This document shows, piece after piece, positions 9,410 to 34,079 of a stretch of DNA of 64,000 bases. Made by a program: the position numbers and the translations under genes. Under the pieces are notes generated by a model. The model did no database searches, was not told the origin of the DNA, and saw only the letters and a list, made by a program, of their open reading frames with translations. The DNA lies in assembly GCA_021817145.1 (NCBI GenBank), contig JAKAVV010000007.1, forward strand, positions 66,957-130,956. The letters run 5' to 3'. Numbering within the stretch: position 1 is the stretch's first letter; every line of letters begins with the position of its first letter. The stretch is from a bacterium (lineage in GTDB: Bacteria; Vulcanimicrobiota; JABDET01).

Positions 9410-10372
9410 GTGAACTTTCATCTCCCAAAAGGGAAATCAATTGGAAAAGAGGTAACAAGGAGCTTAAAAATCCTTTTTGCGACTGCAGCAGTGTTTTTCC
9501 TCCTGTCATCAAGAAAATCCGCTGAAGGAATCCCTGCTGCGATACCCCTCTATCCTTTTAAGAAGATCGTTCTGCCTTTTTCAATTACCAATAAAAAGAA
9601 TATTGTTGTGCAAGGAGAGATCCGCGGGATTCCTGTCCATTTAATTATAGACACAGGAATGGATGCCCCTTTAATTCTCAGCAGATCCTTTTGTTCTGAA
9701 GTCGGGCTTCCACTCAAAAAAGATGCCAATCCTGACCAAAACTACAGCGCTGTCCTTCATCTTTTTGGCAGGAAACAAGAGGAAACAGGCCATGTTTTAA
9801 AAAGTTTTTCTCTCAGATTAAACAGGGAAAATTTTCGAATGAGGAAAAGTCTCGAAGTTTCTGATTTTTCTTATTTTACCCATCATCCTGACAAATATCA
9901 GGGGATTATAGGATGGGGATTTTTCCACGATTTTTTTGTCAAATTTGACTTCCCGAACCGAGAAATCATCCTCGAACACGCAGATTCTACCCCTCCTTCC
10001 TTTCAAAACGGAATACACATTTCTGATGGATTTATCCCAATTATTTCAGTCCGTATCCTTAATAAATCTATTCCATTCCTTCTGGATACAGGCTCACCTC
10101 AATCCTGGATCTCCTATAAATCCCTCAATAAACTGGTTAAAATTCCGATCTTTGCCTCTGTTCCTGGAAATTTAAAAGGAACCATAAAAGTGGACTCTTT
10201 ACAAGTGGGCAGGATCCATGTCCATGGTCTCTCCATCAATGTTATTGGGGGATTTTTCGCTCAAAGCCAGAATAAGAACTTTCAGGGGATCCTTGGACTA
10301 AATGCTTTAAAAACGACAGCAGTCATGTTAGACCCAACTCATAAAATAGCATTAATTAAAGAAAAATATTAA
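9410..10372 (+). CDS. Secreted aspartic protease, clan AA (two D-T-G lobes)
   Basis: Two D(T/S)G catalytic motifs are present (IDTGMDAPLIL and LDTGSPQSWIS). The N-terminus is hydrophobic. Confidence 0.55.
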   Translation: MNFHLPKGKSIGKEVTRSLKILFATAAVFFLLSSRKSAEGIPAAIPLYPFKKIVLPFSITNKKNIVVQGEIRGIPVHLIIDTGMDAPLILSRSFCSEVGLPLKKDANPDQNYSAVLHLFGRKQEETGHVLKSFSLRLNRENFRMRKSLEVSDFSYFTHHPDKYQGIIGWGFFHDFFVKFDFPNREIILEHADSTPPSFQNGIHISDGFIPIISVRILNKSIPFLLDTGSPQSWISYKSLNKLVKIPIFASVPGNLKGTIKVDSLQVGRIHVHGLSINVIGGFFAQSQNKNFQGILGLNALKTTAVMLDPTHKIALIKEKY

Positions 10373-10392
10373 GAGAAAAGAGGGGGAAAACC

Positions 10393-11289
10393 GTGCAAAA
10401 AATATTCACCCAGCGGCAAGTGAAAAAAATTTGGAAAAGTCTGCCAACAATTGAAGGAGCAGGGGTTCATCTCAACCGAGTGTTTGGGTTCCATCAAGTT
10501 CCCAAACTTGACCCTTTTCTGCTCTTAGATGATTTTCGTTCAGAAAATCCTGAAGAGTATAAAGCAGGTTTTCCCTGGCATCCACACCGCGGGATTGAGA
10601 CTATCACATACGTTTTAGATGGAGATGTGGAACATAAAGACAGCATTGGAAATTCAGGAGTTATTTCTGCAGGAGATATTCAATGGATGACTGCTGGCAG
10701 CGGAATCATTCATCAAGAAATGCCTCAGGGAAATCGCAGAGGAGAAATGTTTGGGTTTCAGCTCTGGGCAAATCTCCCCGCGAAATCAAAAATGATTCAT
10801 CCACGCTACCGCGATATTAAACAAAAAGATATCCCCCTTGTAAAAACTCAAGATGGAGCTGAAATACGAGTCATAGCAGGGGAGATTGAAGGGATAAAAG
10901 GACCAATTACAGAGGTTGTCATTAATCCTGAATATTTAGATGTAACCATTCCTCCAGGAAAACGATTTACTCATCCTGTCCAGGAAGGACATACTGTTTT
11001 CTCATACGTTATCGAAGGGGAAGGGGATTTCAACCCTGAGACAGACAAGACTCCTGTCAATTCTGAAAGATCTTTATGCGGAAACGGAACCCTTGTTTTA
11101 TATGGAGAGGGGGATGGTGTGACAATTGCTGCAAGCAGCCGCTCTGTTCGATTCCTGCTTATTTCTGGGAAGCCGATTCATGAACCGGTTGCCTGGTACG
11201 GGCCCATTGTCATGAATACTCAGGAAGAGCTGCGAAGAGCGTTTCAAGAGTATCATGATGGAAGTTTTACTGCGCGCCCATCGGAATAA
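10393..11289 (+). CDS. Pirin-family protein (cupin)
   Basis: The metal-binding pirin motif HPHRGIETITYVLDG is present. A 298-aa size is typical for pirin. Confidence 0.85.
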   Translation: MQKIFTQRQVKKIWKSLPTIEGAGVHLNRVFGFHQVPKLDPFLLLDDFRSENPEEYKAGFPWHPHRGIETITYVLDGDVEHKDSIGNSGVISAGDIQWMTAGSGIIHQEMPQGNRRGEMFGFQLWANLPAKSKMIHPRYRDIKQKDIPLVKTQDGAEIRVIAGEIEGIKGPITEVVINPEYLDVTIPPGKRFTHPVQEGHTVFSYVIEGEGDFNPETDKTPVNSERSLCGNGTLVLYGEGDGVTIAASSRSVRFLLISGKPIHEPVAWYGPIVMNTQEELRRAFQEYHDGSFTARPSE

Positions 11290-11307
11290 AGCAGCCGAAG
11301 CTTCCTT

Positions 11308-11715
11308 TTACTCATAAATAAATTCAATCGGAATCCTCACTTCAGGATGAAGGCTTTTATGAACAGGGCAGGTTTCAGCAACCCTTTCCAAAGTCTTTCT
11401 CATTTCACTTGAAACTTTCCCCGCAGGCATCCTCACTCTTGTTTTTAAGCTCCCAATGCGGCGAAGCGGTTCAGAAACCATTTCTTTGTGAACCTCTACT
11501 TCTGAACCACTCAAATCAATTCCATGGCGATCAGCGAACATTCCCATTGTTGTCAGGATACAGGAAGCAAGAGCAGCTGCCACTAAATCAGTTGGGCTGA
11601 AAGCAGAAGCATCCCCACCAATATCCTTTGGCGCATCTGTTCGAAGACTAACCCCTTCCTGGTGAACAGCCGTGCATTTTTTGCATCCATCATAAACAAC
11701 TTTTATCTTAACCAT
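11308..11715 (-). CDS. OsmC/Ohr-family peroxiredoxin-like protein
   Basis: The ORF is 135 aa with conserved Cys pairs (ASCILTT ... AETCPV) typical of OsmC. Confidence 0.7.
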   Translation of the reverse strand: MVKIKVVYDGCKKCTAVHQEGVSLRTDAPKDIGGDASAFSPTDLVAAALASCILTTMGMFADRHGIDLSGSEVEVHKEMVSEPLRRIGSLKTRVRMPAGKVSSEMRKTLERVAETCPVHKSLHPEVRIPIEFIYE

Positions 11716-12155
11716 TATGGCAGATCTTCTCCTGTGGCAGTAAGAGTAATTCCTCCATGTTTTACCCCTTTGACAGATCGGAGGGCATGATACAAAGCGC
11801 GTATTTGTTTGGGTTTCCCCTTTGCGGCAAGAAGCTCCAAGCAGTGGCTGTTCTCAAGATGGATGTGTTGAGCTGAGAGGACATAGCGGGAATATTCGTG
11901 CTGAATTTCGGTCAGTTTATTTACCAGTTCTCTTTGACTGTGGTCATAAAGGAGAGAGATCGTTCCTAGACTTTCTTTTTCTTCCTCCAACTCCTGTTTG
12001 ATCAGTTTTTCTCGAATTAGATCCCGAATTGCTTCTGAGCGGTTTGTGTATTTCTGCGCGCAGATTTCTTCATCAAACCGTTCTAAAAGATCCGATTCAA
12101 GAGAAACGCCAAATCTTACCACCTGTTTCATTTGATGGAGTATTCGGCGCAGCAT
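11715..12155 (-). CDS. nikR: Nickel-responsive transcriptional regulator NikR
   Basis: An N-terminal ribbon-helix-helix carries NRSEAIRDLIRE. The C-terminal region has the His/Cys nickel site (HIHLENSHC...H). The ORF is 146 aa. Confidence 0.85.
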   Translation of the reverse strand: MLRRILHQMKQVVRFGVSLESDLLERFDEEICAQKYTNRSEAIRDLIREKLIKQELEEEKESLGTISLLYDHSQRELVNKLTEIQHEYSRYVLSAQHIHLENSHCLELLAAKGKPKQIRALYHALRSVKGVKHGGITLTATGEDLP

Positions 12156-12175
12156 TAAAAAATCATGTTTTTCGT

Positions 12176-15124
12176 TTAAAATTTAAAGGTGGTTGTCATA
12201 AAGAATTCTCGGATCGGTTCTAATGCAATAGGGGGATACTTTCCTTTTACAGGGGAGTAATCCTGAGAAAAGGGGTATCCAAAAGAGCCCATAAATGTGG
12301 GGAAATAAGGGGTAGAATTGTAAGCCAGAATCTGACCATTATTAAACAAGTTGAACACTGAAAAAGTGGTGGAAAACCATCTGCTGGCATGATAAGTGAT
12401 CGCAAGATTCGCTAAAAACACAGAGGGGCCAGTTAAACTGTTCGGCAGAGTCTCACCAAGAGGATTGAAATCCCCATTTGCAGGCAGATCTTCTGCGCAG
12501 GCGGCAGGAGTTAGATAAGGATCATTGGGATTTGGAAGAGATCCGCACGCTGCTGCCATATTGACATAAAAACTCTTCAGCTGAGCGCTTCCCATGCCAT
12601 AAGGCTGCCCACTGGTAAACGTAAAATTCGGAGCAATTTCCCATTTTTTATTCGGTTTATAATCTAAGAGCAGATTAACCGTGTGTTTAATATTCCAGTC
12701 AGCTGGAATGGATTGGGTATTTGCCTGCTCGTAAAGAGAAGCCGCGTTTGGCAGAAGATTGGGCTGAAAAATTCCCGCTCCAGTCACTGTGCTGGTTGAA
12801 TTGTATTCTGGAAGAAAAGGGAAAATATATTCTGGATTTCCAACAATTGTGGAATTGTTGTAGGTGTAATTCAAGGTGCTGCTCAGATGATGCCAGTTTT
12901 GAGTATGGAGCTGAAATTCCACTCCTTCTGCCGTCAAAGAGGCTACATTAAAAGCCCCTCCTGCTTCTGCAATAGGAATATAAGTATAAATAATTGGATT
13001 TTTGACTGTCTTTAAATAGGGAGTGATCTTGAGATAGGTCTTTGAATTAGGAAAATATTCCATTGAAAATTCATAATTATCCCCAGATTCAGGAAGATTT
13101 CCGGCTGTTGTGTAACCTACATTTCCAATGACCTTGCAGGGTATGCCGTAAAGGGCTCCTGTTCTTGCTGCACAGAGGTTTGACACGCCAAACACTTCTG
13201 TATCACTTGTGAAGGTATTGAACTTCCCATACCCTGCTTTTAGGGCAAAGGAATGGGTTAACTGATAAGAAATTGAGATTCTCGGCTGAAAAAAAGAAGG
13301 GGATAAGATTCCTGAGTTAACACAAATATTAAACTGAGGTGTGCAGTGAGTAAACAATCCTTCTGGATCAGCAGGGTTATTGATCTGTAAATCAGGGGAG
13401 AATCCGGTGAATCCTTCAACAGCATAAGGAAGCCCATTGGGTTGGGTTATCATTCCTGGAAGATAAGGGGCTTGATAAATCATTTTGTCCCATCGGATTC
13501 CTGCATTCATGTCTAAGTCTGGAAGAGGGGTCCATTCATCATTCACCCAGAGAGATGGATTTTGATTATTTGCCCCTCCAAAATCCGGGTTTCCTGTTAA
13601 TGCCCCTAAGGGGTTTGGGTAAAGATTTGTCATCTCTTGAGTATCGTTGGTATAAATATACTCCCCTCCTAAAGTGATTTTGTTTTCTTTATTGATCTGG
13701 TCTTTGTATTCAAGTCTTACCCCTTTTTGGCGGGCAAGATCATATTGGGAGAAAAAACCATCTGCAGGGGTAGCGGAGTAAAAATCAGGGTTGCTGTCAT
13801 AGAGCCAGAATCGCAAACTTAAACTGCTGATTGGAGAAAAGTAGTGGTGATAGCGGAGACTTTCCAGATTGTAAAATTGATAATTAAAAGGAGGAACAGG
13901 GGAGAATTCTGCTTGAGTTCCACTAGGAGAATAGTAGGTGAATTCAGCAGATTCGAAATCAAATCCGTCTGCTAACAGGAGGGTGAGGATATTTTTCTCA
14001 TCCAAATTATAGGTTAGATTTAAGATTCCATCTCTTGCAACTTTTCGATAGATTTGCCCTCCAATGCCGGAGTAAGTCATAACCTCTTCTCCTGCTGAAT
14101 TTAAATATCCAGACATCCCTTCATTTTCAGAGATGGTGTTGAAAAAATAATGAAATCTCCCTGACTGCCCTTCTAATCTTAAGTCCCAGTTGTCGGGATT
14201 GGATGGACGAATTCCGCTGTATCCAATCCTACTCCCTATCTCTCCAGTGGCAGGGTCTGCTGAAAAAAGAGGGGAATTTTCCCCTTGATCCAGCCAAAAG
14301 CCGTAAGAAAACTGCAGTGAGCCATGCAGCCGCCCAAATCCTTCCGGTACAATCGTGTTTTCATACCCATCTATTCCACTTCCATATTGAACAGGATACA
14401 CTCCTGGGAAAAACTGGAGCGTCTCCATGCCTGTTGTCAATCCAAGATTTCCCGAATCCTCAAAAAGAGTGTAATTTGTGAGAGGAATTCCATCTAAAGC
14501 ATAAACTGTCCCAAATCCGCTTCCACCCCTGATATGAGGCCCTCCAGGCATGCTGAGAGCATAACCTCCACTTGCAGCATAGGTTTGAACCCCAGGAAGC
14601 TCTTCCATAATAGAGGTTGTGTTCAGAGAAGCTGGACCAGGCAGAAAGGCTTTCAGTTCTCTTTCTCCCATGGTGTAAGAGGTCATGGTTTGTCTTAAAT
14701 GGATAGTTTGATTTCTGGCACTGATGACTGTTAACCCTTTAACTGTATAGATGATTGGAAGAATACGAAGAACTTGATAAAAAGTTGTTCCTTTTTCCAA
14801 AGGAACTTTTGAGATAACCTTTGTTTTATATCCAACTCTTTGAATTTTAAGTGTGTAGTCCCCTGGAATTAAATGAATAAATGTAAAATACCCGTCTGCT
14901 CTACTTAATGTAATCCAGGTCTGCTTCTTTTTTATGACTGTAATGACTGCTCTTGAAACCGGTTTGCCTGTTCTTTTATTCACTACCCTGCCTGTTAGTA
15001 TTCCACCGCTCTGTTTCCCAAAGGCTGTTAGGGAGGTGGTGAAAAAATAAAGAATAAGGATGAAATATGATATTTTCCTCTGAAGCGGTTTCCTGCATAA
15101 TTGTGTTATTATTTTAATTTCCAT
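12176..15124 (-). CDS. TonB-dependent outer-membrane receptor with an N-terminal carboxypeptidase-regulatory-like domain
   Basis: The protein has a signal peptide, a CarbopepD_reg-like LTGRVVNKRTGKPVSRAVITV segment, and a long β-barrel region ending in an aromatic residue (...TTFKF). The ORF is 982 aa. Confidence 0.7.
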   Translation of the reverse strand: MEIKIITQLCRKPLQRKISYFILILYFFTTSLTAFGKQSGGILTGRVVNKRTGKPVSRAVITVIKKKQTWITLSRADGYFTFIHLIPGDYTLKIQRVGYKTKVISKVPLEKGTTFYQVLRILPIIYTVKGLTVISARNQTIHLRQTMTSYTMGERELKAFLPGPASLNTTSIMEELPGVQTYAASGGYALSMPGGPHIRGGSGFGTVYALDGIPLTNYTLFEDSGNLGLTTGMETLQFFPGVYPVQYGSGIDGYENTIVPEGFGRLHGSLQFSYGFWLDQGENSPLFSADPATGEIGSRIGYSGIRPSNPDNWDLRLEGQSGRFHYFFNTISENEGMSGYLNSAGEEVMTYSGIGGQIYRKVARDGILNLTYNLDEKNILTLLLADGFDFESAEFTYYSPSGTQAEFSPVPPFNYQFYNLESLRYHHYFSPISSLSLRFWLYDSNPDFYSATPADGFFSQYDLARQKGVRLEYKDQINKENKITLGGEYIYTNDTQEMTNLYPNPLGALTGNPDFGGANNQNPSLWVNDEWTPLPDLDMNAGIRWDKMIYQAPYLPGMITQPNGLPYAVEGFTGFSPDLQINNPADPEGLFTHCTPQFNICVNSGILSPSFFQPRISISYQLTHSFALKAGYGKFNTFTSDTEVFGVSNLCAARTGALYGIPCKVIGNVGYTTAGNLPESGDNYEFSMEYFPNSKTYLKITPYLKTVKNPIIYTYIPIAEAGGAFNVASLTAEGVEFQLHTQNWHHLSSTLNYTYNNSTIVGNPEYIFPFLPEYNSTSTVTGAGIFQPNLLPNAASLYEQANTQSIPADWNIKHTVNLLLDYKPNKKWEIAPNFTFTSGQPYGMGSAQLKSFYVNMAAACGSLPNPNDPYLTPAACAEDLPANGDFNPLGETLPNSLTGPSVFLANLAITYHASRWFSTTFSVFNLFNNGQILAYNSTPYFPTFMGSFGYPFSQDYSPVKGKYPPIALEPIREFFMTTTFKF

Positions 15125-15370
15125 GCTACCAAACTGGCTCCTTTATAAAAAAGCAGCTCCTCCTTCTATATGAGGGTGTAATATTATTATACAGAGTTTA
15201 CTATCAATTTTTAAAAGATATAGTCATTAATGAATCAGTAAAAGAGATGCTCCCTTCTCGTATACTCCATACAATGAAGAAAATTGTGTTATTTTTTTTA
15301 ATTTAGTGCTATTATAGCATGACAGGATCGATCTGTCAAGAGCCCGAATTGAAGCAGCTGACTGTTTAGA

Positions 15371-15496
15371 GTTTTCGAATATCCAACCCATTTCTTCCTA
15401 GATCCGCAGCAGCTTTTAAAGTGGTTCCAGTCCCAAGAAAAGGATCAAGAACAGTTTCATTTTTATAAGTAAAAGCTTTAATGATTCGATCAGAAG
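15371..15496 (-). pseudogene. Remnant of a β-class DNA methyltransferase, comprising only the motif I / C-terminal region
   Basis: About 125 bp are roughly 88% identical to 16121..16243 of the intact methyltransferase gene. It encodes ...LDPFLGTGTTLKAAADLGRK... on the minus strand. No upstream catalytic SPPY region is present. Confidence 0.5.
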
Positions 15497-15598
15497 GAGA
15501 ATATTTTCAATGATCGCAGGGGGTAAAATTTGATGATCGTCTGCATTCCATGGCAGAATGAAAAGGTAATTTAACGAGTTTCATATAACTTTTCAAAC

Positions 15599-15817
15599 AT
15601 GGTAAACACCATGAGGCAAGTAATTATTTATTCGGGGGAAGATGGTTATTGGATTGCCGAATGTCCTTCTCTTCCTGGCTGTATTAGCCAAGGATACACT
15701 AAAGAAGAAGCTATTGCCAACATAAAAGAAGCTATTCATGGTTATGTGGCAGCCTTGCAGCAGGACAAACTTCCTGTTCCCGAAGAGAAGTTTGAAGCAA
15801 TGCTTTTTGTGGTATGA
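15599..15817 (+). CDS. HicB-like (UPF0150) antitoxin, orphan
   Basis: The 72-aa product (MRQVIIYSGEDGYWIAECPSLPGCISQGYTKEEAIANIKEAIHGY) is paralogous to the hicB at 17371..17592. No hicA lies adjacent. Confidence 0.6.
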   Translation: MVNTMRQVIIYSGEDGYWIAECPSLPGCISQGYTKEEAIANIKEAIHGYVAALQQDKLPVPEEKFEAMLFVV

Positions 15818-16056
15818 GCAAGCTTCCACTCGTGGAATTATTCGATTGGCTGGTTTGACTGTGGAAGAGTTTGTGAATCTTCTTTGATTCGTTATTTTTT
15901 TACTTTCCTACCTTAAAAGTATCACTTTTCATCGTCGCTGTCAAGTTTTTGCGTGCTGCCGCTAGCTGAGCCTGGCACTAAGTTTTTTTTGGCATATTGA
16001 AATTCTACATATTTGGTTTCTCTAAGAGATTGTTTTTGTGTCTCGTGTTATAAAAT

Positions 16057-17124
16057 TTAAACGAATTTACTGTGGTGGTTTTTCAATCTTTTTACTGCCA
16101 GTTCCACAATTTCAGGAACGATTTCGTATCCTACCCCATTTCTTCCCAGATCCGCAGCAGCTTTTAAAGTGGTTCCACTCCCAAGAAAAGGATCAAGAAC
16201 ACTTTCACTTTTATAAGTAAAAGCTTTAATGAGTCGATAAGGCAGTTCATAAGGAAATGGTGCTGCATGGGAGCGGTGGTCTCCGCTTTTCTCGGGATTC
16301 ATTATCCAGACATCTGAGTTTTTGATCTTCAGCCAAAAATCCTTATCCAATTTTGAAGCCTCTTTCTGCTCTTTTGTTAAATGCCCATATTTATCGAACC
16401 CTTTTTTTTCGGGTTTATTAAACTCTAAAATAAATTCGTGCATGTTGTTGATTAAAATGCCGCCTGGGAAGGGATAGGTTCCAAAATGAGCTCTTACTCC
16501 ATTGGTTTTATGCCACACAATATCCCTTTTAAAAATAAATCCAATCTTTTCCATCAGATCAATGGTTCTACCTGCCAAATTTAAAGATTTAAACCCTTCT
16601 TTATTTCGCACAGGCAAATTCATGATATTAACAAAAGCCTTTCTCCCTGGCTGCAAAACCCTAAAGACCTCTTTCCACACCATTCCAATGGCTTCGAACC
16701 ATTCATCCAGTCCATGGATATCCCCAAGGTTATTTTCTATCGGATCTTTCGTGTACATTTTTGCGTTAAAATAAGGGGGTGAAGTGACCATTAAATGAAC
16801 AGAATCATCCTCTAATTCTTTCATGTTCATGGCATTGGCAGTATAAATTTTCTGTGTCGTATCATTGATCTTGAGAATGTTCTCCGCAGGAACTTCTTTT
16901 TTTGTTTCTTTATTTAACTTTGGCAGACTTTTTTCATGCTCGATCAGATCCTGCAGATCAAATCTCTTCTGCCCGCTGGCAGCTGTCAGGTATCGAATTT
17001 TTTCAGCTTTAGCCAGCCTATGCAAAATTTCAACGGAAATTCCAAGCCATTTCGCAGCTTCAATAGAAGATAAGTATTTTCTCTCTTCGTAATCCTTATA
17101 GCCATTCTTTACAGAAGCCTTCAC
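16057..17124 (-). CDS. DNA methyltransferase, β-class (N4-cytosine or N6-adenine) with an N-terminal HTH domain
   Basis: SPPY motif IV (MVTSPPYFN) precedes motif I (LDPFLGSGTT), which is the β-class order. An N-terminal HTH is present (LSSIEAAKWLGISVEILHRLAKAEKI). Confidence 0.85.
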   Translation of the reverse strand: MKASVKNGYKDYEERKYLSSIEAAKWLGISVEILHRLAKAEKIRYLTAASGQKRFDLQDLIEHEKSLPKLNKETKKEVPAENILKINDTTQKIYTANAMNMKELEDDSVHLMVTSPPYFNAKMYTKDPIENNLGDIHGLDEWFEAIGMVWKEVFRVLQPGRKAFVNIMNLPVRNKEGFKSLNLAGRTIDLMEKIGFIFKRDIVWHKTNGVRAHFGTYPFPGGILINNMHEFILEFNKPEKKGFDKYGHLTKEQKEASKLDKDFWLKIKNSDVWIMNPEKSGDHRSHAAPFPYELPYRLIKAFTYKSESVLDPFLGSGTTLKAAADLGRNGVGYEIVPEIVELAVKRLKNHHSKFV

Positions 17125-17281
17125 AGAAGCTGCTCCTCTTTGTTCTTAATGATACAACCGTTCTTTGCTTTGATAAATGGATCCTTCACTAAAACGTTTT
17201 CTTTCTTTAAGAAAAAAGCGCTGCAATTTGTATCCCCAACAAAACACTATTTCTTTTAGAAGCAGAAAATAGGAATGTTAG

Positions 17282-17348
17282 AGCAATCTCAAAAAAGTAA
17301 AAAAAAGCTTCTTTTTTCACGATAAAAGAAGTTCCAGATCCTGAACAG
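17282..17348. repeat. Direct repeat copy 1 (about 67 bp, containing the terminator hairpin)
   Basis: agcaatctcaaaaaagtaaaaaaaagcttcttttttcacgataaaagaagttccagatcctgaacag matches 19557..19623 with 3 mismatches. Confidence 0.8.
17298..17333 (-). terminator. Rho-independent terminator (hairpin plus U-run on the minus strand) downstream of hicB
   Basis: The stem agcttctttt/aaaagaagtt at 17306..17333 closes an 8-nt loop. On the plus strand an A7 run precedes it (17299..17305), which reads as a U-run after the hairpin on the minus strand. Confidence 0.5.
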
Positions 17349-17370
17349 CAGCAGTCATCGGGGTTAGTCC

Positions 17371-17592
17371 TTAAGCAGAGGTTTGGTAAATAAGAGGCTT
17401 ATATCTGGGGCGGGGTATTGGTTTTCCTTCTGCCTTTGCTGCTTCCAGCCAGGCTTCTTTGGCAACCTTTAACTGGGAAAGGGCTTCTTCAGGTGTTTTT
17501 CCAAAAGCTGAGCAAGCGGTTAGATCCGGAATATCAGCAATATACCCTTCATCTTTTTCACTGTAAAAAATGTTAATATGATAATCTCTCAT
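17371..17592 (-). CDS. hicB: HicB-family antitoxin
   Basis: The 73-aa product has the UPF0150 fold signature (YSEKDEGYIADIPDLTACSAFGKTPEEAL). It overlaps hicA by 4 bp. Confidence 0.7.
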   Translation of the reverse strand: MRDYHINIFYSEKDEGYIADIPDLTACSAFGKTPEEALSQLKVAKEAWLEAAKAEGKPIPRPRYKPLIYQTSA

Positions 17593-17843
17593 GACTGTTC
17601 CTCCAGCTTAAGATTATATTTTTCCAGCAGATGCAAAAATTGGCGAACTTGATATGGCTTGGCTTTACCATTTACTTCTTGCAAATTTATCAGTTCTTGA
17701 ACCTCGGGGTGGACAAAAATATGATGGCTCCCATTCACTCTTGAAAGATGAAATCCAAACGCTTGAACTAACACAATCATTTCCTCGAATCTTATATTTT
17801 TTGAACTAGAAAAAGCTTTCCTCAGCAATTTTCGCTTGTTCAT
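17589..17843 (-). CDS. hicA: HicA-family mRNA interferase toxin
   Basis: The 84-aa product is YcfA/HicA-like (LVQAFGFHLSRVNGSHHIFVHP). It lies immediately upstream of and overlaps hicB. Confidence 0.7.
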   Translation of the reverse strand: MNKRKLLRKAFSSSKNIRFEEMIVLVQAFGFHLSRVNGSHHIFVHPEVQELINLQEVNGKAKPYQVRQFLHLLEKYNLKLEEQS

Positions 17844-18322
17844 GCGCTGAGTGATAATTGATACAACATTTTCATAAATATATCATTCCAGAATTTAGAA
17901 GATTTTACCTGTGTGTTTTCTAAAAGGATGTGAAAAATCACAAAAATCTCATTCCAGCAAACACATTCTCAATCGGATTCGTGGTCTTCAAATGCTTCCA
18001 ATTGTAATTGACAAAAAGAAATAAATGGCAAGTATTGAGCTCAAAAAAGCATTCGAGAAAGGGGTTGGAACAATAAGGTCTAGCATAATCGCATTTTTCA
18101 ATTGTCCTATCCCAGCATAACAGGATTCACCAGGGTGGCAGAACAAATTTCCACACCTCTTGACAAGAACTCCGGGGGCATTGAAGAACGGTGTTTCCCT
18201 TTATCGGCTTTCGTCATTCCCTATGCTCCTGATCAGCGGCTTGATTGAGGTTCACTGATTTGCTTTGGGTTCGAGATTGAAGCGGGAATTACCTAATGCT
18301 TGGCTTTAAATAATGCCCTGCT

Positions 18323-19351
18323 TTGCTGGAGGAATCCATCATGCACACCAATAATTCCATACTCATGCCGCTCACAAACCGTTTAAAAGACGAGTCCAGC
18401 AGAGAATTTCGCTTTCTGGAGAATAAATTTCCAATCGTCAAACTGCTAACAGAAAAAACTCATCCTCTATCAGCGCTTAAAAGCTTCCATTTTATGAATT
18501 TATCCCGAGAAACTGTTCTCCCCTCAGAAGTCCCTTCTTCACAAAGAAGAGTTGTTGGAACAGCGATTGATTACCGAATTCGATATTATTTCGATATAAC
18601 GTCGTCCACAGAATTGGCTGCATATAGGGGGGCAAGAGTGGCAAATAAACTTTATTACCATCCTATGACTGGCGAATGTATCAGTCCTATTTTCCCTGCT
18701 GACTTTACTGCTAACTTCTTTAAGAATCTAGAGAATACCCTGAAAAGAATAAAGCCCGTTAATCGCTTGCTGGATCAAATAAGTGAAGAATTATTAGCTA
18801 GATACTGCGTTATTTTAGCCTACTTTGAAGCTTTATTTCGAGCTGGAAGATCCATCAATTCTCCTTTACGCACTCTTTCCCAGAAAGCAACGCTGCAAGA
18901 TCTCCTTAATTTGCCAGAACCATCATTCATAAAAGATGTCATGGATTTATCCAAGTCTTTTTATGAAGACGCCAAATCCTTATTTGATAAGCCTTGCAAA
19001 CTGAATCCAACTTTTGACGGAACCAATGACATAGGAGGGGCAGATGCTGATTTCATTCTAGAAGATACTCTTTATGAAATTAAGACTGTTTCAGATCTTA
19101 AGCCCAGCTGTTTTCGGGAAGCCATTTACCAATTGCTGGGTTATGTGCTGCTAGATTATTCGGATTCTCACCATATTCGAAAAATCGGCATTTATTTTAC
19201 AAGACAGCGTCAATTCTGGTCAATCCCCTTATATTTGTTCTTAATTCCGCATGCCAGCCTAAGTCAATCTTCTTCGTGGAAACCCGAATCAGAAAAAGAA
19301 ATAAAGAAACAGCTCAGCTTCTTGAGAAGAGAGTTCAAACAATTGCTTTAA
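18323..19351 (+). CDS. Hypothetical protein with a candidate PD-(D/E)xK nuclease motif
   Basis: The ORF is 342 aa. The segment GGADADFILEDTLYEIKTV fits D...E-x-K of the restriction-endonuclease fold. No other motif was recognised. Confidence 0.4.
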   Translation: MLEESIMHTNNSILMPLTNRLKDESSREFRFLENKFPIVKLLTEKTHPLSALKSFHFMNLSRETVLPSEVPSSQRRVVGTAIDYRIRYYFDITSSTELAAYRGARVANKLYYHPMTGECISPIFPADFTANFFKNLENTLKRIKPVNRLLDQISEELLARYCVILAYFEALFRAGRSINSPLRTLSQKATLQDLLNLPEPSFIKDVMDLSKSFYEDAKSLFDKPCKLNPTFDGTNDIGGADADFILEDTLYEIKTVSDLKPSCFREAIYQLLGYVLLDYSDSHHIRKIGIYFTRQRQFWSIPLYLFLIPHASLSQSSSWKPESEKEIKKQLSFLRREFKQLL

Positions 19352-19556
19352 AAATCAAAGCTAAATTGTTTGACCAAAGAAGCATTTTCAGAATATCGTA
19401 TGCGGAGAGAATTAAAAATGCGCGCACTGCCAAGCTCTTTGCAGAAATGTTAGATCCAAACCCAAAAATTTGATGAATCTGCAAACTCGTTTTGATTTAA
19501 AAGCTGCGCAGCGAGAACTCGGGGATTTTATTCGCGAAGATATACGACCCCTACAG

Positions 19557-19623
19557 AGCAATCTCAAAAAAGTAAAAAAAAGCTTCTTTTTTCACGATAA
19601 AAGAAGCTCCAGATCGTGAACAG
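19557..19623. repeat. Direct repeat copy 2 (about 67 bp, containing the terminator hairpin); overlaps the 3' end of the SNF2 helicase gene
   Basis: The sequence is near-identical to 17282..17348. The stop codon of the 19592..22873 CDS lies in the hairpin loop. Confidence 0.8.
19573..19608 (-). terminator. Rho-independent terminator for the SNF2 helicase gene
   Basis: The hairpin agcttctttt / aaaagaagct at 19581..19608 is perfect. A plus-strand A-run precedes it at 19574..19580. Confidence 0.5.
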
Positions 19624-22600
19624 TCATGTTCCTGATAAGGTTATCCCCTTCTTCAAGAATTGACTGAGCCAGCTCTTTTTTTGTTTTCTGCAGAGCCAGC
19701 ACTTTTTCTTCCACTGTTCCTTTTGCGATTAAACGGTAAGCAAAAACAGGTTTGGTCTGCCCAATTCGATGGGTTCGATCAACTGCCTGGGATTCTACTG
19801 CCGGGTTCCACCAGGGATCCAGGAGAAAAACGTACTCTGCTGAGGTAAGGTTTAAACCAAACCCTCCAGCCTTTAAACTGATTAAAAAGATTTTGCATTC
19901 TGGATCCTGCTCAAAATGATTGACTACTCCCTCTCTATCCGTGGTTTTCCCATCTAGATATTCATAAGGGATTTTTTCTTTTTCCAGATGATTTCGCACA
20001 AGGGCAAGAAATTTCGTGAATTGGGAAAAAACAAGGGCTTTGTGCCCTTCTTCAATAACCTCGAACAGTTGGGGGAAAAGGGCATCCAGCTTTGCGCTGC
20101 CTTGAAATGCAAGAGATTCGTCCAGTAAACCTGGATGACAGGCAGCCTGGCGAAGTCGCAGCAGGGCTTCTAAAATCTGGATTTTGGTTTTTGCTATTCC
20201 TTCTGTGTCAATCTGTTTAAGCAAGGAGCGCCGATAATATTCGCGCAGCTGAGCATACATTTCTTTCTGTTTCCCTTCCATTTCACAATAAATGAGCTGT
20301 TCTGTTTTAGCAGGGAGTTCAGGAGCCACATCTTCTTTTCTGCGGCGCAGTAGAAAAGGGCGAAGGGAACGGGATAGAAAGGGTTTGTTTTCTTCAGAAA
20401 CACTCCTCGTTTCGCCTCCTGACAATTTTTGGAATAAGGAGCTGTTCCCTAGAATGCTTGGATTTAAAAACTCGAACTGACTCCAGAGTTCACCTAGATG
20501 ATTTTCAACAGGAGTCCCTGTGAGGGCGACTCGATATTGTCCTGATAAAAGTCGAGCCGCTTTGGCTGAATCGCTGTTCGGGTTTTTAATTGCCTGTGAT
20601 TCATCCAGGATAAGATAATCAAATGGATAGTCTTTAAGAAAAAAAATATCTTTTCGAAGGGTTCCATAAGTTGTCAAAACAAGATCGTAATCTTTAAAAT
20701 GGTTTGTATTTTTTTCTCTGGAGGTTCCTGTGTGATCCAGAATCCGCAGATCAGGAGTAAATCTGCGGGCTTCTTGTTTCCAGTTAAAAATCAAGGATTT
20801 TGGAACTACAGCAAGAGAAGGGGGGATTCGTTTTTCTTTATTAGAATTTTTTCTGGCGGCAAGCAGAGCTAAAATCTGGATTGTTTTTCCAAGCCCCATA
20901 TCATCCGCTAAAATTCCCCCGAATCCAAACTCCTGTAGAAAGAAGAGCCATCCTAATCCGATTTTTTGATATTCTCGCAGTGTTCCTTGAAATGTTAAAG
21001 GGGGCTCTGCTCCTTTTATTCCTGTAAAATTTTGCAGTTTTTCACGGATTTTTGAAAATCGTTCATCGCTTTTTATTTCAGGTTGAAGAGAAAGGAGAGC
21101 ATCTAGAAAACCCGCCTGATTTTTTGAAAAAGTGACTGTTCCGTCTTTAATTTCGGCAAGGGATGAAAGCAGCCCGTACTGCTGCAGCCATTCTTCAGGA
21201 AGGATCCCAACTGTTCCATCATCTAAAACAACTGTATTTTCTTTTTTTCTTACCGCTTCCAGAATTTTAGGGAAAGGGACAGAGGATCCTTCAAAGTCCA
21301 CCTGCCCATCCAGCTCAAACCAGTCTATTTCTGTGGAGATTTTTAAAGTGGAAGAACGGAGGGGACGAAAGAGTTTCCCTTCTGCTTCCACATGCCACTC
21401 TTTTTCCACCAGAACTTTAACCGTTTTATTTAATTTTGAAATAGGGAGTTCCCATCCCTGTCCACCGTTTTTTCCTGTTAATCGAAATCCATGCTCCAGT
21501 AAAAGTTTCTGCGCCTGGTTTTCTTCAATAAAGTTTCTTTCATGAATTTCTCTTTCCCCTGCATGAAAAAGAACGTGTCTTGGATCCTGTGGATAGATCT
21601 CAAGACCATTGTATGAGAAAGATAACTTTGCAAAAACAGTGGGTCTGTATTTTAGATTTAGATCAGGGGATTTTAAGTGAAGGTTTGGTTTTGGGGGTGA
21701 AGAAACTTTTGTGATTTTAAATTCTTCAGGGAGCTCTAATAAAGGGAGTTGGGGTAAGGAGAGGAGTTCGGCTAGAAAATTTTCTTTTTCGTTTTCATGA
21801 ATTTGGATCTCATTTTTTTTACACAACATCACAATCCATGGGAAAACTCCTGAGTCTTCTAATAAGGCGGCGCGGTCGGGAAAGAAAACAGCCCCTCCTG
21901 CAGCCAGAAGTGAAGGCTGATCCAGTGGAATTTTTTCTCCCTTTCTGGAAAGCACTCCTTTGCCAATAAAATAAGGGGGATGTGATGAAAATTCTAGAGA
22001 AAATCCCCATGGTTTCCCTTCTTCCCACTGCAGGGGATGGGAATGAAGGGTATTAGTTTCTCGCAAAAAAGCTTTTCCACTTTGGCAAATTTGAGGAAGG
22101 ATTCTTTTTACTCGATCTGCTGGAATAATGTAATATCCCCCATAATAACCTCGATAAGAATAGTTTCGATAGGAGTAACTTTGATAAGAATAGGATGGAT
22201 TCTTTTTTGGAGATAGATTTTCTGGAATTGCTGCAAGATAACTTAACAAGGCTTGATCAGAATCTGGCAGTTCAGGGAAAGAGTCGTTTTTTATTCTTGC
22301 CATTTTTGTCTTCCCCCAGGTTCCGTCTTTCTTTTTCTCGCGGAAAGCTGCTTCAATAGTAAGAGTATGGTTGGAAAAAGTTTGAGTTACATCCACAATA
22401 TAGACAATTTCAGAGTTTATGAGTGGAGAGGAAGTGGAATGAAAAGAAGGGGAAGGAAGTTGATTTTTGATTCGGGCAATATCAATTTTCCAATCAGGAA
22501 GCTGGGGCTCTTTCACAGAGACAAGGTTGACTTCCTGGGGTTCTTCAAGTTCTCTGAAATAATGATTCCAGCTTGCCATTAATAGGACTGCTGAAATATG

Positions 22601-22873
22601 AGGGCAAACTTTAAATGTATCCTGAAAAGCTCGGCAGGTGCAGAATACTTGCAGGTTTTTTTGATCTGCTGTGACCATGACTTCAAAAGGGCTGCCGTCT
22701 AAAACATGAGCCGCAATAAATTCCCCTTCTTTTAAAACGAGAATTCTGACCGTATCGTAAAAATAGGCGAGTTTCCGACCAAGTTCGAAGTTTTCAAATG
22801 GAATTTGATGGGTGATGTTTTGGATTAAAAAAGGGCCTGGCACATTATGGAGTATTTTTTGGGGAAAATCCAA
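19592..22873 (-). CDS. SNF2-family helicase with an N-terminal SWIM zinc finger
   Basis: A SWIM finger (CTCRAFQDTFKVCPHISAV) is present. SNF2 motif I (ILADDMGLGKTIQ) and motif II (LILDESQAIKN) are present, and the C-terminal helicase domain ends in QAVDRTHRIGQ. The ORF is 1093 aa. Confidence 0.85.
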   Translation of the reverse strand: MDFPQKILHNVPGPFLIQNITHQIPFENFELGRKLAYFYDTVRILVLKEGEFIAAHVLDGSPFEVMVTADQKNLQVFCTCRAFQDTFKVCPHISAVLLMASWNHYFRELEEPQEVNLVSVKEPQLPDWKIDIARIKNQLPSPSFHSTSSPLINSEIVYIVDVTQTFSNHTLTIEAAFREKKKDGTWGKTKMARIKNDSFPELPDSDQALLSYLAAIPENLSPKKNPSYSYQSYSYRNYSYRGYYGGYYIIPADRVKRILPQICQSGKAFLRETNTLHSHPLQWEEGKPWGFSLEFSSHPPYFIGKGVLSRKGEKIPLDQPSLLAAGGAVFFPDRAALLEDSGVFPWIVMLCKKNEIQIHENEKENFLAELLSLPQLPLLELPEEFKITKVSSPPKPNLHLKSPDLNLKYRPTVFAKLSFSYNGLEIYPQDPRHVLFHAGEREIHERNFIEENQAQKLLLEHGFRLTGKNGGQGWELPISKLNKTVKVLVEKEWHVEAEGKLFRPLRSSTLKISTEIDWFELDGQVDFEGSSVPFPKILEAVRKKENTVVLDDGTVGILPEEWLQQYGLLSSLAEIKDGTVTFSKNQAGFLDALLSLQPEIKSDERFSKIREKLQNFTGIKGAEPPLTFQGTLREYQKIGLGWLFFLQEFGFGGILADDMGLGKTIQILALLAARKNSNKEKRIPPSLAVVPKSLIFNWKQEARRFTPDLRILDHTGTSREKNTNHFKDYDLVLTTYGTLRKDIFFLKDYPFDYLILDESQAIKNPNSDSAKAARLLSGQYRVALTGTPVENHLGELWSQFEFLNPSILGNSSLFQKLSGGETRSVSEENKPFLSRSLRPFLLRRRKEDVAPELPAKTEQLIYCEMEGKQKEMYAQLREYYRRSLLKQIDTEGIAKTKIQILEALLRLRQAACHPGLLDESLAFQGSAKLDALFPQLFEVIEEGHKALVFSQFTKFLALVRNHLEKEKIPYEYLDGKTTDREGVVNHFEQDPECKIFLISLKAGGFGLNLTSAEYVFLLDPWWNPAVESQAVDRTHRIGQTKPVFAYRLIAKGTVEEKVLALQKTKKELAQSILEEGDNLIRNMTVHDLELLLS

Positions 22874-23012
22874 ATCCTGCTTTGGAGTGAGTAAAGAAAA
22901 ACCCTGCCTTGGTTTCTGCAGGGTTTAAAAGTACTAAAGTGCCATCCTGTCTTGGGTGGCGCGTAATGCTGTTCTAACTAACTTTTTGATTCATGTTTTA
23001 TCTGTCCTCAAC

Positions 23013-23582
23013 TTATTTGCGGAAGACCCATGTTCCATAAGTTTTTTGTGTGCCCTGCATTCCATTATGGACCACATATTTTCCAGGGAATTCATGAGGG
23101 GCGACCCAAACATTGATGGTTTCCCCGTTAAGGAGGTAGAAAGGAGGTCTTGCGGTATGCGGCTCACGAGCGATGAAATCTCTTAAGACCCCTACTTTTC
23201 TAGCATCTGGGAGTTTTTCTACGGTAACATTTCTGACATTCCAAATTCTGATTCTGTGTCCCTGCCAGATGCCGGAAAAAAATCGAACAGGGGGGCGTTT
23301 CATGGCAAAGACCCATGTTCCATAAGTTTTTTGTGTGCCTTGCATTCCATTATGGACCACATATTTTCCAGGGAATTGGCGGGGGGCGACCCAAACATTG
23401 ATGGTTTCTCCATTAAGGAGGTAGAAAGGAGGTCTTGCAGTATGCGGCTCACGAGCGATGAAATCTCTTAAGACCCCTACTTTTCTAGCATCTGGGAGTT
23501 TTTCTACGGTAACATTTCTGACATTCCAAATTCTGATTCTGTGTCCCTGCCAGATGCCGGAAAAAAATCGAACAGGGGTTTT
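23013..23582. repeat. Tandem duplication, 2 x 285 bp
   Basis: Copy 1 spans about 23013..23297 and copy 2 about 23298..23582. For example gacccatgttccataagttttttgtgtgcc occurs at 23025 and 23310. Only a few substitutions differ (RQFPG versus HEFPG). Confidence 0.85.
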
Positions 23583-23699
23583 TGCAGAATAAGTATCAAA
23601 AGCGGCAAATGCCTTTTGAGGGGAACCTAGAAGCAGTAGTGAAAAAACAAATGATAATGCGAGAAACGATAAAAATCCACGAACAATAATTTTTTTCAT
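23013..23699 (-). CDS. Secreted protein of unknown function containing a near-perfect internal tandem duplication
   Basis: A signal peptide (MKKIIVRGFLSFLALSFVFSLLLLGSPQKAFA) is followed by two 95-aa units that are about 97% identical at the nucleotide level. Confidence 0.5.
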   Translation of the reverse strand: MKKIIVRGFLSFLALSFVFSLLLLGSPQKAFAAFDTYSAKTPVRFFSGIWQGHRIRIWNVRNVTVEKLPDARKVGVLRDFIAREPHTARPPFYLLNGETINVWVAPRQFPGKYVVHNGMQGTQKTYGTWVFAMKRPPVRFFSGIWQGHRIRIWNVRNVTVEKLPDARKVGVLRDFIAREPHTARPPFYLLNGETINVWVAPHEFPGKYVVHNGMQGTQKTYGTWVFRK

Positions 23700-23807
23700 T
23701 GACTCCTCCTTGCCTTTTTTTGTTTGTTATTTAACGCGCGCAGCGGTTTTCCTTCTCATGACTTCGTTGGTCTGTGCCTCTATTTGCAGCGATTTTAAAA
23801 AAGTATA

Positions 23808-23836
23808 TTGACAAATTATGAAGAATGTGATAACAT
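23808..23836 (+). promoter_or_regulatory. Putative sigma70-type promoter for dps
   Basis: TTGACA lies at 23808..23813 and TAACAT at 23831..23836 with a 17-nt spacer. AGGAGG lies at 23863..23868, 6 nt before the ATG at 23875. Confidence 0.45.
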
Positions 23837-23874
23837 AAAGAGTTAAATCAATTTAAAAAATAAGGAGGAAAAAA

Positions 23875-24372
23875 ATGCAAACAAATGCTGCTCATTATGA
23901 TAAACAGATTGGACTTTCAGAGGAAGAGAGAAAGGGCTCTGCTTCTATTTTGAATGCTCTGCTCTCAGATGAGTATCTGCTTTACACTAAAACCCGGAAT
24001 TACCACTGGAATGTTGTTGGACCCCAATTTAATGATCTTCATAAGTTTTTTGAAGCTCAGTACGAGGCGCTGAATGATATAGTGGATGATGTGGCTGAAA
24101 GAGCAAGAGCTTTAAATGAACCGGCTTTAGGCACAATGACTGAATTTTTAAAACAGGCTCGTTTAAAAGAGGAGCCCGGAAAATATCCGGATGCCAGAAC
24201 TATGATTTCGGATTTGCTCTCAGACCATGAAGCCATTATTCGAACTTTACGCTCTGATTTAGAAACCTGTTTAAATCGTTTCCATGATATGGGAACCAAC
24301 GATTTTCTAACCGGGCTTATGGAAAAACATGAGAAAATGGGATGGATGTTGAGGGCTTTTCTGCGGAATTAG
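23875..24372 (+). CDS. dps: Dps-family DNA-protection / ferritin-like protein
   Basis: YTKTRNYHWNVVGPQFNDLHKFFEAQYE is the Dps ferroxidase-site region. The ORF is 165 aa. Confidence 0.85.
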   Translation: MQTNAAHYDKQIGLSEEERKGSASILNALLSDEYLLYTKTRNYHWNVVGPQFNDLHKFFEAQYEALNDIVDDVAERARALNEPALGTMTEFLKQARLKEEPGKYPDARTMISDLLSDHEAIIRTLRSDLETCLNRFHDMGTNDFLTGLMEKHEKMGWMLRAFLRN

Positions 24373-33099: not shown

Positions 33100-34059
33100 A
33101 TGAAAAGGTTGATATTGTTCTTTTTATGCGTAGTTTTTTTAGGCGCATTTGCTCCTAAGGCAAAAGCAGGAGTTAACGTGAACATAAATGTGAATTTATT
33201 CCCTCAGTATGATGGCTTTGTTTCAGGGTATTATGGAATCCCTGAACCTGAGGTGGTCTATTATCAGGATAGACTCCACAGCTGGCAGGATGCAGCTACT
33301 TTATTTTTCTTGTCTCGGCTGACAGGATGTTATCCTCGAGTAATTTTAGGTTGGAGATTGGGAGGGATGCCCTGGGTCAGTATTGTTGCAAGACTGGGTG
33401 TGCCCTATAATGTTTTTTACGTCCCCTATGGTCCTTATGGTGATTATTTCATGAATCATGATGGTCCTCCTTATGGGAATGCTTGGGGATACTGGAGGAG
33501 AGGTCCTCGTGGAAGATTTCTTGCGCTTAATGATCAAGCAATTCGAAATCGAGTTTCTTTAATTATGACTTCTCAGTATTATCACATTCCTGTGCAGCAA
33601 GAGGCGGGATGGATTACAGAACACAGGGTTGGTTTTGGGAGATTAGTCCAGGAGCATTGGAGAGAAAGGAACCCTGGGTTTCGATTTGATAGAAGCGCAT
33701 TCGAGCATGGAGCGCGGATCCCTTTTTATAATGGGCGTGGTCCGCAAGGGCGTGGAAACCGTGGTCCGCAGTGGCAGAGGAATCAGGGTCCGCAAGGGCG
33801 TGGAAACCGTGGTCCGCAAGGTCGTGGAAATCGCGGTCCCCAGGGGCATGGAAATCATGGTCCCCAAGGTCGTGGAAATCATGGTCCCCAAGGGCATGGA
33901 AATCATGGTCCCCAAGGGCACGGAAATCGTGGTCCTCAAGGGCATGGAAATCGTGGTCCTCAAGGGCATGGAAATCGTGGTCCTCAAGGGCATGGAAATC
34001 GTGGTCCTCAAGGGCATGGAAATCGTGGTCCCCAGGGGCATGGAAATCATGGACATTAA
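33100..34059 (+). CDS. Secreted protein with a C-terminal GPQG(H/R)GN(R/H) octapeptide repeat array
   Basis: A signal peptide and a roughly 200-aa globular region precede about 14 tandem 8-aa repeats. Confidence 0.5.
   Translation: MKRLILFFLCVVFLGAFAPKAKAGVNVNINVNLFPQYDGFVSGYYGIPEPEVVYYQDRLHSWQDAATLFFLSRLTGCYPRVILGWRLGGMPWVSIVARLGVPYNVFYVPYGPYGDYFMNHDGPPYGNAWGYWRRGPRGRFLALNDQAIRNRVSLIMTSQYYHIPVQQEAGWITEHRVGFGRLVQEHWRERNPGFRFDRSAFEHGARIPFYNGRGPQGRGNRGPQWQRNQGPQGRGNRGPQGRGNRGPQGHGNHGPQGRGNHGPQGHGNHGPQGHGNRGPQGHGNRGPQGHGNRGPQGHGNRGPQGHGNRGPQGHGNHGH
33721..34056. repeat. 24-bp tandem repeat array (about 14 units) encoding GPQGHGNR
   Basis: Units such as ggtcctcaagggcatggaaatcgt are directly visible and carry small substitutions (H/R, cct/ccc). 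Confidence 0.85.
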
Positions 34060-34079
34060 CTTTAATTAGAAAAAATAGG

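Follow-up and report, generated by a model that had tools for sequence, protein, structure and literature searches.

How a small cassette came to lie between two copies of a neighboring gene's end is the question raised by one locus in a bacterial contig (JAKAVV010000007.1 of assembly GCA_021817145.1, positions 66,957 to 130,956), of which 64,000 nucleotides were analyzed; this stretch is termed the window, and all coordinates below refer to it. Here, a predicted hicA-hicB toxin-antitoxin pair and a gene for a nuclease-like protein are bracketed by a 69-nt direct repeat derived from the end of the adjacent SNF2 helicase gene. The reading that we favor, with moderate confidence, is that of a decayed, integrase-less cassette flanked by attachment-site-like (att-like) repeats, resembling a cis-mobilizable element (CIME), which would have arisen by Campbell-type integration of a circle carrying a diverged SNF2 gene end.

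The direct repeat occupies positions 17280-17348 (copy 1, R1) and 19555-19623 (copy 2, R2) at a spacing of 2,275 bp, and its copies differ at two positions: T in copy 1 for C in copy 2 (17332/19607), and C for G (17341/19616). The first 52 nt of the 69-mer are identical, and to the right of the repeat edge a 6-nt indel (CAGCAG in copy 1) is followed by four further matching bases. The original prediction had described repeats of about 67 bp at 17282-17348 and 19557-19623 with three differing positions; the repeat itself stands, its left edge lies 2 nt further out, and the differences number two. A 31-mer core occurs exactly twice in the window, versus zero occurrences expected from 100 shuffles, and a repeat search of the whole 64 kb returned no third copy. 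Both copies were found in approximately ten independent metagenome assemblies, with R1, the cassette, and R2 contiguous in about ten, and the repeat is therefore not an assembly artifact.

Rather than belonging to a repeat family, the 69-mer consists of the 3′ terminus of the SNF2 helicase gene: its ten final codons, its stop codon, and its rho-independent terminator. The helicase gene (19592-22843, minus strand) encodes 1,083 amino acids with SWIM, SNF2_assoc, SNF2, and Helicase_C domains (Pfam) and is DpdE/ZorD-like according to PADLOC. As had been predicted, copy 2 overlaps its last codons (VHDLELLLS*, with the stop codon at 19592-19594), and among 120 homologs of this helicase the terminal DLELLLS* is conserved as the family C-terminus. 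The stop codon sits in the loop of a hairpin (19579-19610, minus strand) with 10 perfect pairs (12 by the terminator scan), an 8-nt loop, and a following U8ACU6 tract. This intrinsic terminator was called by the scan on the minus strand as a 12-pair stem plus U-run, and it folds at -21 kcal/mol (z = -2.8). The 10-bp hairpin, AGCTTCTTTT-N8-AAAAGAAGCT, was originally reported as perfect in each copy, which holds for copy 2 only: in copy 1 (17304-17335, minus strand) the arm reads AAAAGAAGTT, and the T at 17332 produces an A.C mismatch in the minus-strand RNA. Correspondingly weakened, the copy 1 hairpin was negative in the terminator scan and folds no better than shuffled sequence (z = +0.7), although its position makes it the presumed terminator of hicAB.

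Copy 1 can also be read as protein. On the minus strand and in the same frame it holds a relic, MTAAVQDLELLLS* (17358-17317), versus the resident helicase end, NMTVHDLELLLS*; the copy-1-type sequence reads …CCTGAACAGCAGCAGTCATCGGGG. By this comparison, copy 1 is a second, slightly diverged SNF2 gene end, that is, a displaced 3′ end and terminator that would form an attL/attR-like junction. Copy 1 follows the hicB stop codon after 22 nt (17349-17370) and precedes by 155 nt the start of the methyltransferase gene that forms the left neighbor of the insertion. A donor helicase ending in ...AAVQDLELLLS is absent from the 120 best C-terminal homologs (approximately 66-69% identical).

Strains were compared via exact-protein look-ups, which returned loci of one species from a series of metagenome-assembled genomes (MAGs; GCA_0274215xx-8xx) and from MEGAHIT assemblies in the European Nucleotide Archive (ENA). 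Over 15 kb, one of these loci (L002) matches the window at 100%, the NCBI names on closely related proteins are Ca. Eremiobacterota, and the flanking genes differ by at most 0.3% between strains. Two loci lack the cassette: a 94.7-kb contig of the same species (L108; ERZ27237345), with approximately 99.7-99.9% flank identity, and a Ca. Eremiobacterota MAG (L112; GCA_023381495.1) that is approximately 98% identical. In both, the order is methyltransferase, one 69-mer, SNF2, and window position 17348 joins 19624. The original prediction had proposed a search in relatives for an empty site with a single copy of the repeat; these two sites support its claim that the cassette was inserted between the methyltransferase and helicase genes. 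The 3′ end of the SNF2 gene is the insertion target.

The single 69-mers of the empty sites differ from each other. That of L108 carries the copy-2 single-nucleotide polymorphisms (SNPs) and a private AAAAGAGCGAAAAAA stretch (four differences) seen in no R1 or R2, so this empty site is not a recent product of deletion between R1 and R2. The 69-mer of L112 has homopolymers A7/T7 and a T, as in many R1 copies, followed by the G of R2. Across strains, R1 shows the homopolymer variants A8/T6, A7/T6, and A7/T7, while its T and C SNPs and the CAGCAG are constant; R2 is A8/T6 and showed no variation in 28 fetched copies, some of which represent the same contig fetched twice. In 10 fetched copies the R1 homopolymer is A7/T7, identical to the empty site of L112, the outgroup. 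This agreement of R1 with the outgroup, versus the A8/T6 of R2, is as expected if the two repeats are hybrid attL/attR junctions.

In one sample, the cassette appears joined head-to-tail to itself. A MEGAHIT contig of 2,416 nt (L010; DAIBGL010000070.1 of GCA_027421785.1) has identical first and last 141 nt, and 2,416 minus 141 gives 2,275 nt, the exact repeat spacing. Its junction consists of the cassette end (to 19554), one 69-mer with the copy-1 SNPs, and the cassette start (from 17349), and the copy-1 SNPs place the crossover within the 52-nt identical block. The 141-nt overlap is the final k of MEGAHIT, and when both ends of a MEGAHIT contig are the same k-mer, the contig traces a closed walk through the graph at k = 141. 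Since the 69-nt repeat falls short of this k, the contig requires real 141-mers, and thus reads, that run from the cassette end through the repeat into the cassette start. Such a closed walk indicates that no branch to either chromosomal flank survived in that assembly, and L010 is a strong hint of a circle or tandem array that either outnumbered the chromosomal junctions or coexisted with empty-site chromosomes.

The repeats bracket hicB, hicA, and an open reading frame (ORF) of 336 amino acids, as had been predicted, although the ORF begins at ATG 18341, behind a GGAGG, and not at 18323. On the minus strand, hicB (17371-17592; 73 amino acids) matches the antitoxin families PF21748 (5e-7, 30 bits) and PF15919 (5e-6, 27.1 bits), and consists only of the RNase H-like HicB/UPF0150 fold, without a DNA-binding tail. 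The toxin gene hicA (17589-17780, minus strand; 63 amino acids by the gene callers, in an ORF that is open to 17843) matches PF07927 (6.7e-8) at 33 bits versus a cutoff of 27; the two hicB scores are at or just above their cutoffs. The hicA stop codon overlaps the hicB start (ATGA, 17589-17592), and these adjacent, overlapping genes with HicA and HicB domains are predicted to constitute a type II HicAB toxin-antitoxin system. A divergent intergenic region (17844-18340), with no Rfam match, separates hicA from the 336-amino acid ORF (18341-19351, plus strand), which is convergent with the SNF2 gene, and a non-coding segment (19352-19554) lies between its stop codon and copy 2. In one strain (L015) this right-hand end of the cassette varies strongly, with 11 differences in 203 nt.

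The 336-amino acid protein has no match to Pfam, NCBIfam, or Protein Data Bank sequences, and its assignment draws on other features. It displays RecB/Cas4-like PD-(D/E)xK motifs (GGADAD...EIK...QLLGY), of which GGADAD...K...G-Y is invariant and the Q (QxxGY) nearly invariant in 330 homologs. In PADLOC it matches RTasPDDEXK (3e-11), a PD-(D/E)xK model associated with defense-associated reverse transcriptases (DRT), and PDC-S61 (3e-9), a candidate defense gene. Its AlphaFold2 model has a predicted local distance difference test score (pLDDT) of 92.4, and the best Foldseek matches are to the RecB-type nuclease domains of Dna2, AdnAB, AddAB, and Cas4, none of them significant. We consider it a putative RecB/Cas4-like nuclease of a family that occurs in defense islands. 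The two homolog contexts that were read are both defense islands with integrases nearby, one beside Hachiman and an nSTAND3 helicase and the other beside SRAP and an integrase. Neither has a methyltransferase neighbor. A type II restriction-modification pair formed by this protein and the methyltransferase was considered and rejected, as the methyltransferase occurs without the 336-amino acid gene in L108 and L112.

No integrase (Phage_integrase included), resolvase, or transposase domain of Pfam was detected in the cassette, in the large allele described below, in the called flanking genes, or in the scanned window ORFs of at least 170 amino acids. The window contains no tRNA genes, positions 14500-24000 have no Rfam match to known RNAs, and the cassette ends share no inverted repeats of 14 nt or more. 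From approximately 14750, the downstream end of a TonB-receptor gene, to approximately 19500, the GC content is 0.34-0.41, versus 0.41-0.46 in the flanks.

We infer from these observations that the cassette was gained rather than lost. Under the integration that we favor, a circular DNA with hicA-hicB, the RecB/Cas4-like nuclease gene, and its own slightly different SNF2 gene end would have undergone a single reciprocal (Campbell-type) recombination with the resident SNF2 gene end. The insertion would amount to 2,275 bp, a 2,206-bp cassette plus one extra 69-mer, placed in the 3′ end and terminator of the helicase gene. The helicase would thereby keep an intact 3′ terminus with its terminator (copy 2), copy 1 would be displaced to a site behind hicB, where it could terminate hicAB, and the methyltransferase gene would retain its native upstream region. 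The cassette would now be a slot in a defense island, bounded by repeats that are probably still recombinogenic, given that it is missing in some strains and joined through one repeat in L010. The enzyme may have been a site-specific recombinase acting in trans on the 10-8-10 hairpin core, or the exchange may have been RecA-type, acting on the 52 bp of identity. A crossover to the left of position 53 of the 69-mer, for example in the hairpin, agrees with the SNPs both for the loop junction and for the original event (provided that the attB had C and G, as L108 does), and such a position is compatible with either route.

Several features argue for this origin. All differences between the copies are cassette-proximal and the flanks differ by no more than 0.3% between strains; some divergence of the copies therefore probably predates their joining. 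The clustering of these differences, the reading of copy 1 as the SNF2 end of another allele, and the identity of the R1 homopolymer with that of the outgroup together point to a Campbell-type event and not to duplication at insertion. A duplicated 3′ end of the target gene is, by analogy, a signature of integrative elements that target gene 3′ ends, and the location of nuclease homologs in islands beside integrases and defense genes also counts in favor, as do the empty sites, the loop junction, and the lower GC content of the segment that holds the cassette. As no recombinase is left in the cassette, we read it as decayed and integrase-less.

The species harbors at least 4-5 structural alleles at this one locus: empty, with the 2.3-kb cassette, hicA-deleted, with an additional 11.45-kb block, and with a truncated methyltransferase followed by foreign DNA. 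In the large allele, an 11,452-bp block is inserted at 18295/18296, a population breakpoint within the hicA-nuclease intergenic region, and has no repeats at its ends. This allele was assembled from a contig of the Joint Genome Institute (JGI; L104; 3300039716, Ga0438459_0002943; 9564-14219) and one from ENA (L094; 3136-9931), which overlap by 3,135 nt at 100% identity. The block encodes an nSTAND3 protein (1,666 amino acids), a MAD7/SspG-like protein (600 amino acids), and a NERD-kinase (1,451 amino acids; MkoA/mad6-like). The 430 nt to its left (17866-18295) are 5% divergent, versus 99.98% identity in the neighboring DNA. The 336-amino acid ORF and copy 2 are kept, so that the bracket there measures 13.7 kb. 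A 132-nt deletion (17734-17865) removes the 5′ end of hicA both in small cassettes (L015 and L111) and in the large allele (L104), which indicates that the toxin gene is being lost while hicB stays. Two contigs (L018 and L020) break at 17729. In a 68-kb MAG contig (L125; GCA_027421885.1), homology ends at 16938/16939, in the 5′ part of the methyltransferase gene, where the helix-turn-helix (HTH) domain is replaced to yield a 329-amino acid protein followed by unrelated small genes. The same assembly also has a window-type contig that begins at 16888.

A number of these observations weigh against an integrated, att-flanked element. The bracketed unit is not atomic, since the 336-amino acid ORF and copy 2 also occur beside the 11.45-kb defense block; nor is the cassette a conserved unit elsewhere, both homolog contexts being without hicAB or an SNF2 neighbor. 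No recombinase was recognized within the cassette or the 64-kb window, and an identity of 52-69 bp suffices for slow RecA-dependent events, so that no dedicated machinery is required. The polarity of the change is read from two empty alleles, one in the outgroup and one in the ingroup, and the 69-mer of the outgroup L112 (A7/T7, T, G) is exactly the deletion product of R1 and R2 with a crossover between the two SNPs. The loop is one contig from one MAG, known from assembly alone, in which a circle and a tandem array are indistinguishable. The 141-mer at its ends (17446-17586) also closes an unrelated contig (L114; GCA_027421545.1), which stops exactly at 17446; this shared 141-mer may mark a branch point in the graph, in which case the loop could be connected to further sequence and not be a free-standing circle. 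Position 17446 is a recurrent assembly boundary, and no variant sequence abutting it was seen.

A rival reading takes the occupied form as ancestral: copy 1 would be what survives of a second, tandemly arranged SNF2-like gene in which hicAB and the nuclease gene took the place of the main body, and the empty sites would be later deletions between the repeats. Copy 1 as a diverged SNF2 C-terminal relic, the exact composite of R1 (A7/T7, T) and R2 (G) in the single copy of L112, and the evident occurrence of repeat-mediated loop-out all suit this history, as does a stray internal fragment of the methyltransferase gene 748 bp away, which suggests that gene debris is common here. However, two independent deletions would be needed, in the outgroup and in L108, and the private four-difference stretch of the L108 69-mer is absent from every R1 and R2. 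The supposed paralog would also have been reduced to 13 codons, ending 12 nt (17359-17370) from the hicB stop codon, and no relative with two SNF2 genes was seen. Further SNF2 loci, 69 in number, were taken from GTDB species representatives of many phyla and have no methyltransferase, hic genes, or nuclease nearby; being mostly 37-51% identical with a few partial matches at 58-66%, they are uninformative for the empty site. We regard this ancestral-occupancy history as unlikely. Copying of the 69 bp in situ at insertion, as a long target-site duplication by staggered cuts or through slippage or template switching, would demand no homology on the incoming DNA and would account for the sharp repeat boundaries on both sides and the 52-nt identical core. 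Fresh copies would, however, be identical, whereas here the two SNPs and the 6-nt indel are all found toward one end, amid surroundings that differ by at most 0.3%. Known transposition target duplications are 2-15 bp, far from 69 bp, and neither a transposase nor terminal inverted repeats of at least 14 nt are found at the cassette, all of which renders duplication at insertion very improbable.

If the cassette moved itself, the loop contig would reflect a high-copy circle. Either the RecB/Cas4-like nuclease or a host Xer-type recombinase would act on the 10-8-10 hairpin, whose arm-spacer-arm layout is like that of tyrosine-recombinase core sites; the nuclease is the sole DNA-metabolism enzyme aboard, and L010 is unbranched at either chromosomal junction. 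Yet no PD-(D/E)xK protein of this family is known as a recombinase, the homologs are ordinary defense-island genes for which no repeats are reported, the nuclease gene also sits in the allele with the 13.7-kb bracket, and the loop is a single contig with a 141-mer in common with L114. We give this self-mobilization little credence, and the same low standing applies to an active, recombinase-less mini-element that would use the hairpin of a defense-gene terminator (10-bp arms, 8-bp spacer) as its attachment site, would be excised and re-inserted by one of these two enzymes, and could build up as a circle retained by hicAB addiction. Chance flanking by a dispersed, terminator-associated repeat, the outcome that the original prediction had named as fatal to it, appears scarcely credible. 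Such a repeat, which might resemble repetitive extragenic palindromes (REP) or miniature inverted-repeat transposable elements (MITE), could well possess a hairpin and U-run, as many dispersed intergenic repeats do. There are, however, only two copies in 64 kb, no 69-mer copy beyond these two positions among approximately 100 fetched loci of the species, and exactly one copy at the empty sites. The 25-nt core has no exact match in three public collections (genome, metagenome, and viral contigs), in which the species and genome of the window are not included. One contig (L104, from JGI) contains the 25-nt core, yet the metagenome collection scan was blank; the JGI sample of this contig lies outside that collection, and the zero-match results are therefore weaker than they look. 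The 69-mer is simply SNF2 coding sequence, with the conserved C-terminus of the family, plus a terminator, so the REP/MITE-like suggestion made at the outset is unsupported. Three further candidates were rejected. A template/variable repeat pair like that of diversity-generating retroelements lacks a reverse transcriptase, and the mismatches are not adenine-specific; for an integron attC site, the 69-mer has no GTTRRRY on either strand and there is no integrase or array; a transposon, insertion sequence, or MITE is at odds with the absence of inverted repeats of at least 14 nt, the 69-bp duplication, the absence of a transposase, and the presence of two copies only.

With Campbell-type integration preferred, the closest known systems are the CIMEs, which are the remains of integrative elements: the genes for integration and transfer are gone, whereas attL and attR persist, in most cases at a target-gene 3′ end (PMC5704250). 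The present locus shares with them direct repeats of the target-gene 3′ end around cargo-only DNA, an intact target gene, and single-copy empty sites, and L010 may represent a joined attP-like form. No integrase or other integration or transfer gene lies inside: the cassette carries only hicA, hicB, and the PD-(D/E)xK protein gene, and the 11.45-kb allele adds no recombinase. It differs from CIMEs in that the cassette is tiny (2.2 kb), it targets the gene of a defense helicase, not one for a tRNA or a housekeeping function, no cognate integrase was found within 64 kb, the host phylum (Ca. Eremiobacterota) is uncultured, and a descent from integrative and conjugative or integrative and mobilizable elements would be hypothetical.

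Other systems offer partial parallels. Tyrosine-integrase islands and prophages integrate at the 3′ end of protein-coding or tRNA genes and carry a surrogate 3′ end. Similar to these, the locus has a duplicated target 3′ end and terminator, an identity block of tens of base pairs, and a slightly diverged element-side copy, but here there is no integrase or excisionase, there are no recognizable arm-type sites, and the size is far smaller. Integron cassettes, including the toxin-antitoxin cassettes of chromosomal integrons, are likewise small, promoter-poor cargo with a toxin-antitoxin pair, hairpin-forming boundary sites, and circularization, putative here, with a single site; in contrast, the 69-mer has no R″/R′ boxes, IntI, attI, and an array are absent, and, in a departure from attC, both sites duplicate one gene end almost exactly. 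The alternative cargo between conserved flanks, with at least 4-5 alleles in one species, recalls defense-island hotspots, although exchange by flanking homology leaves no direct repeats, whereas one layer of variation here is repeat-bracketed.

The methyltransferase that forms the left neighbor (16057-17124, minus strand) is an N6/N4 DNA methyltransferase with an N-terminal HTH domain, and it directly follows SNF2 in the empty-site alleles. It is itself associated with a second bracket. A frameshifted fragment of approximately 120 nt containing methyltransferase motif I (DPFLGxGTT) lies at 15373-15493, 748 bp downstream of the intact copy, and repeats 16122-16241 at approximately 92-94% identity with indels. 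Inside this second bracket (15599-15887, plus strand) are hicB2 (15599-15817; PF15919, 4e-8) and a decayed hicA2 that, read by eye, begins MSKLP..., is frameshifted, and ends ...RGIIRLAGLTVEEFVNLL*. The second bracket is older than the bracket formed by the SNF2 gene end, because it is also present in the approximately 98% identical relative L112, and it does not match a simple Campbell insertion, after which the distal copy should be followed by a methyltransferase C-terminus, which is missing. The end of contig L019 falls precisely at 15493.

On the other side of the cassette, strains differ by an indel of approximately 52 nt (22882-22886) at or just upstream of the SNF2 start, and the called helicase lengths are 1,028, 1,083, 1,093, and 1,111 amino acids. 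Further along, a 271-nt tandem duplication (23023-23578; 97% identical, period 285) lies within a gene for 228 amino acids (23013-23699, minus strand), and other strains have a single unit and a 133-amino acid product. An ORF of 319 amino acids (33100-34059), with no Pfam match, contains approximately 12 (up to approximately 17) tandem 24-nt units at 33690-34100. A second methylase locus (55651-57305) consists of a C-5 cytosine DNA methylase gene followed by an overlapping gene of the HhH-GPD base-excision type.

The kind of arrangement described here, att-like repeats derived from the 3′ end of a target gene, is already known; what is unusual is the small size, the lack of a recombinase, the use of a defense helicase terminator as the site, and the loop contig. 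For annotators, it implies that apparent terminator repeats around small cassettes may be att-like scars. The empty and occupied alleles form a natural before-and-after pair for the entry of a toxin-antitoxin and nuclease cassette into a defense island with neither neighbor damaged, and they indicate that, in an uncultured phylum, as little as 69 bp of gene end plus terminator can be used repeatedly for docking and loop-out. Should the loop contig stem from genuine circles or from amplification, this would be an amenable case of cargo-only DNA being mobile with no recombinase of its own, and the addiction module would favor cells that retain the cassette.

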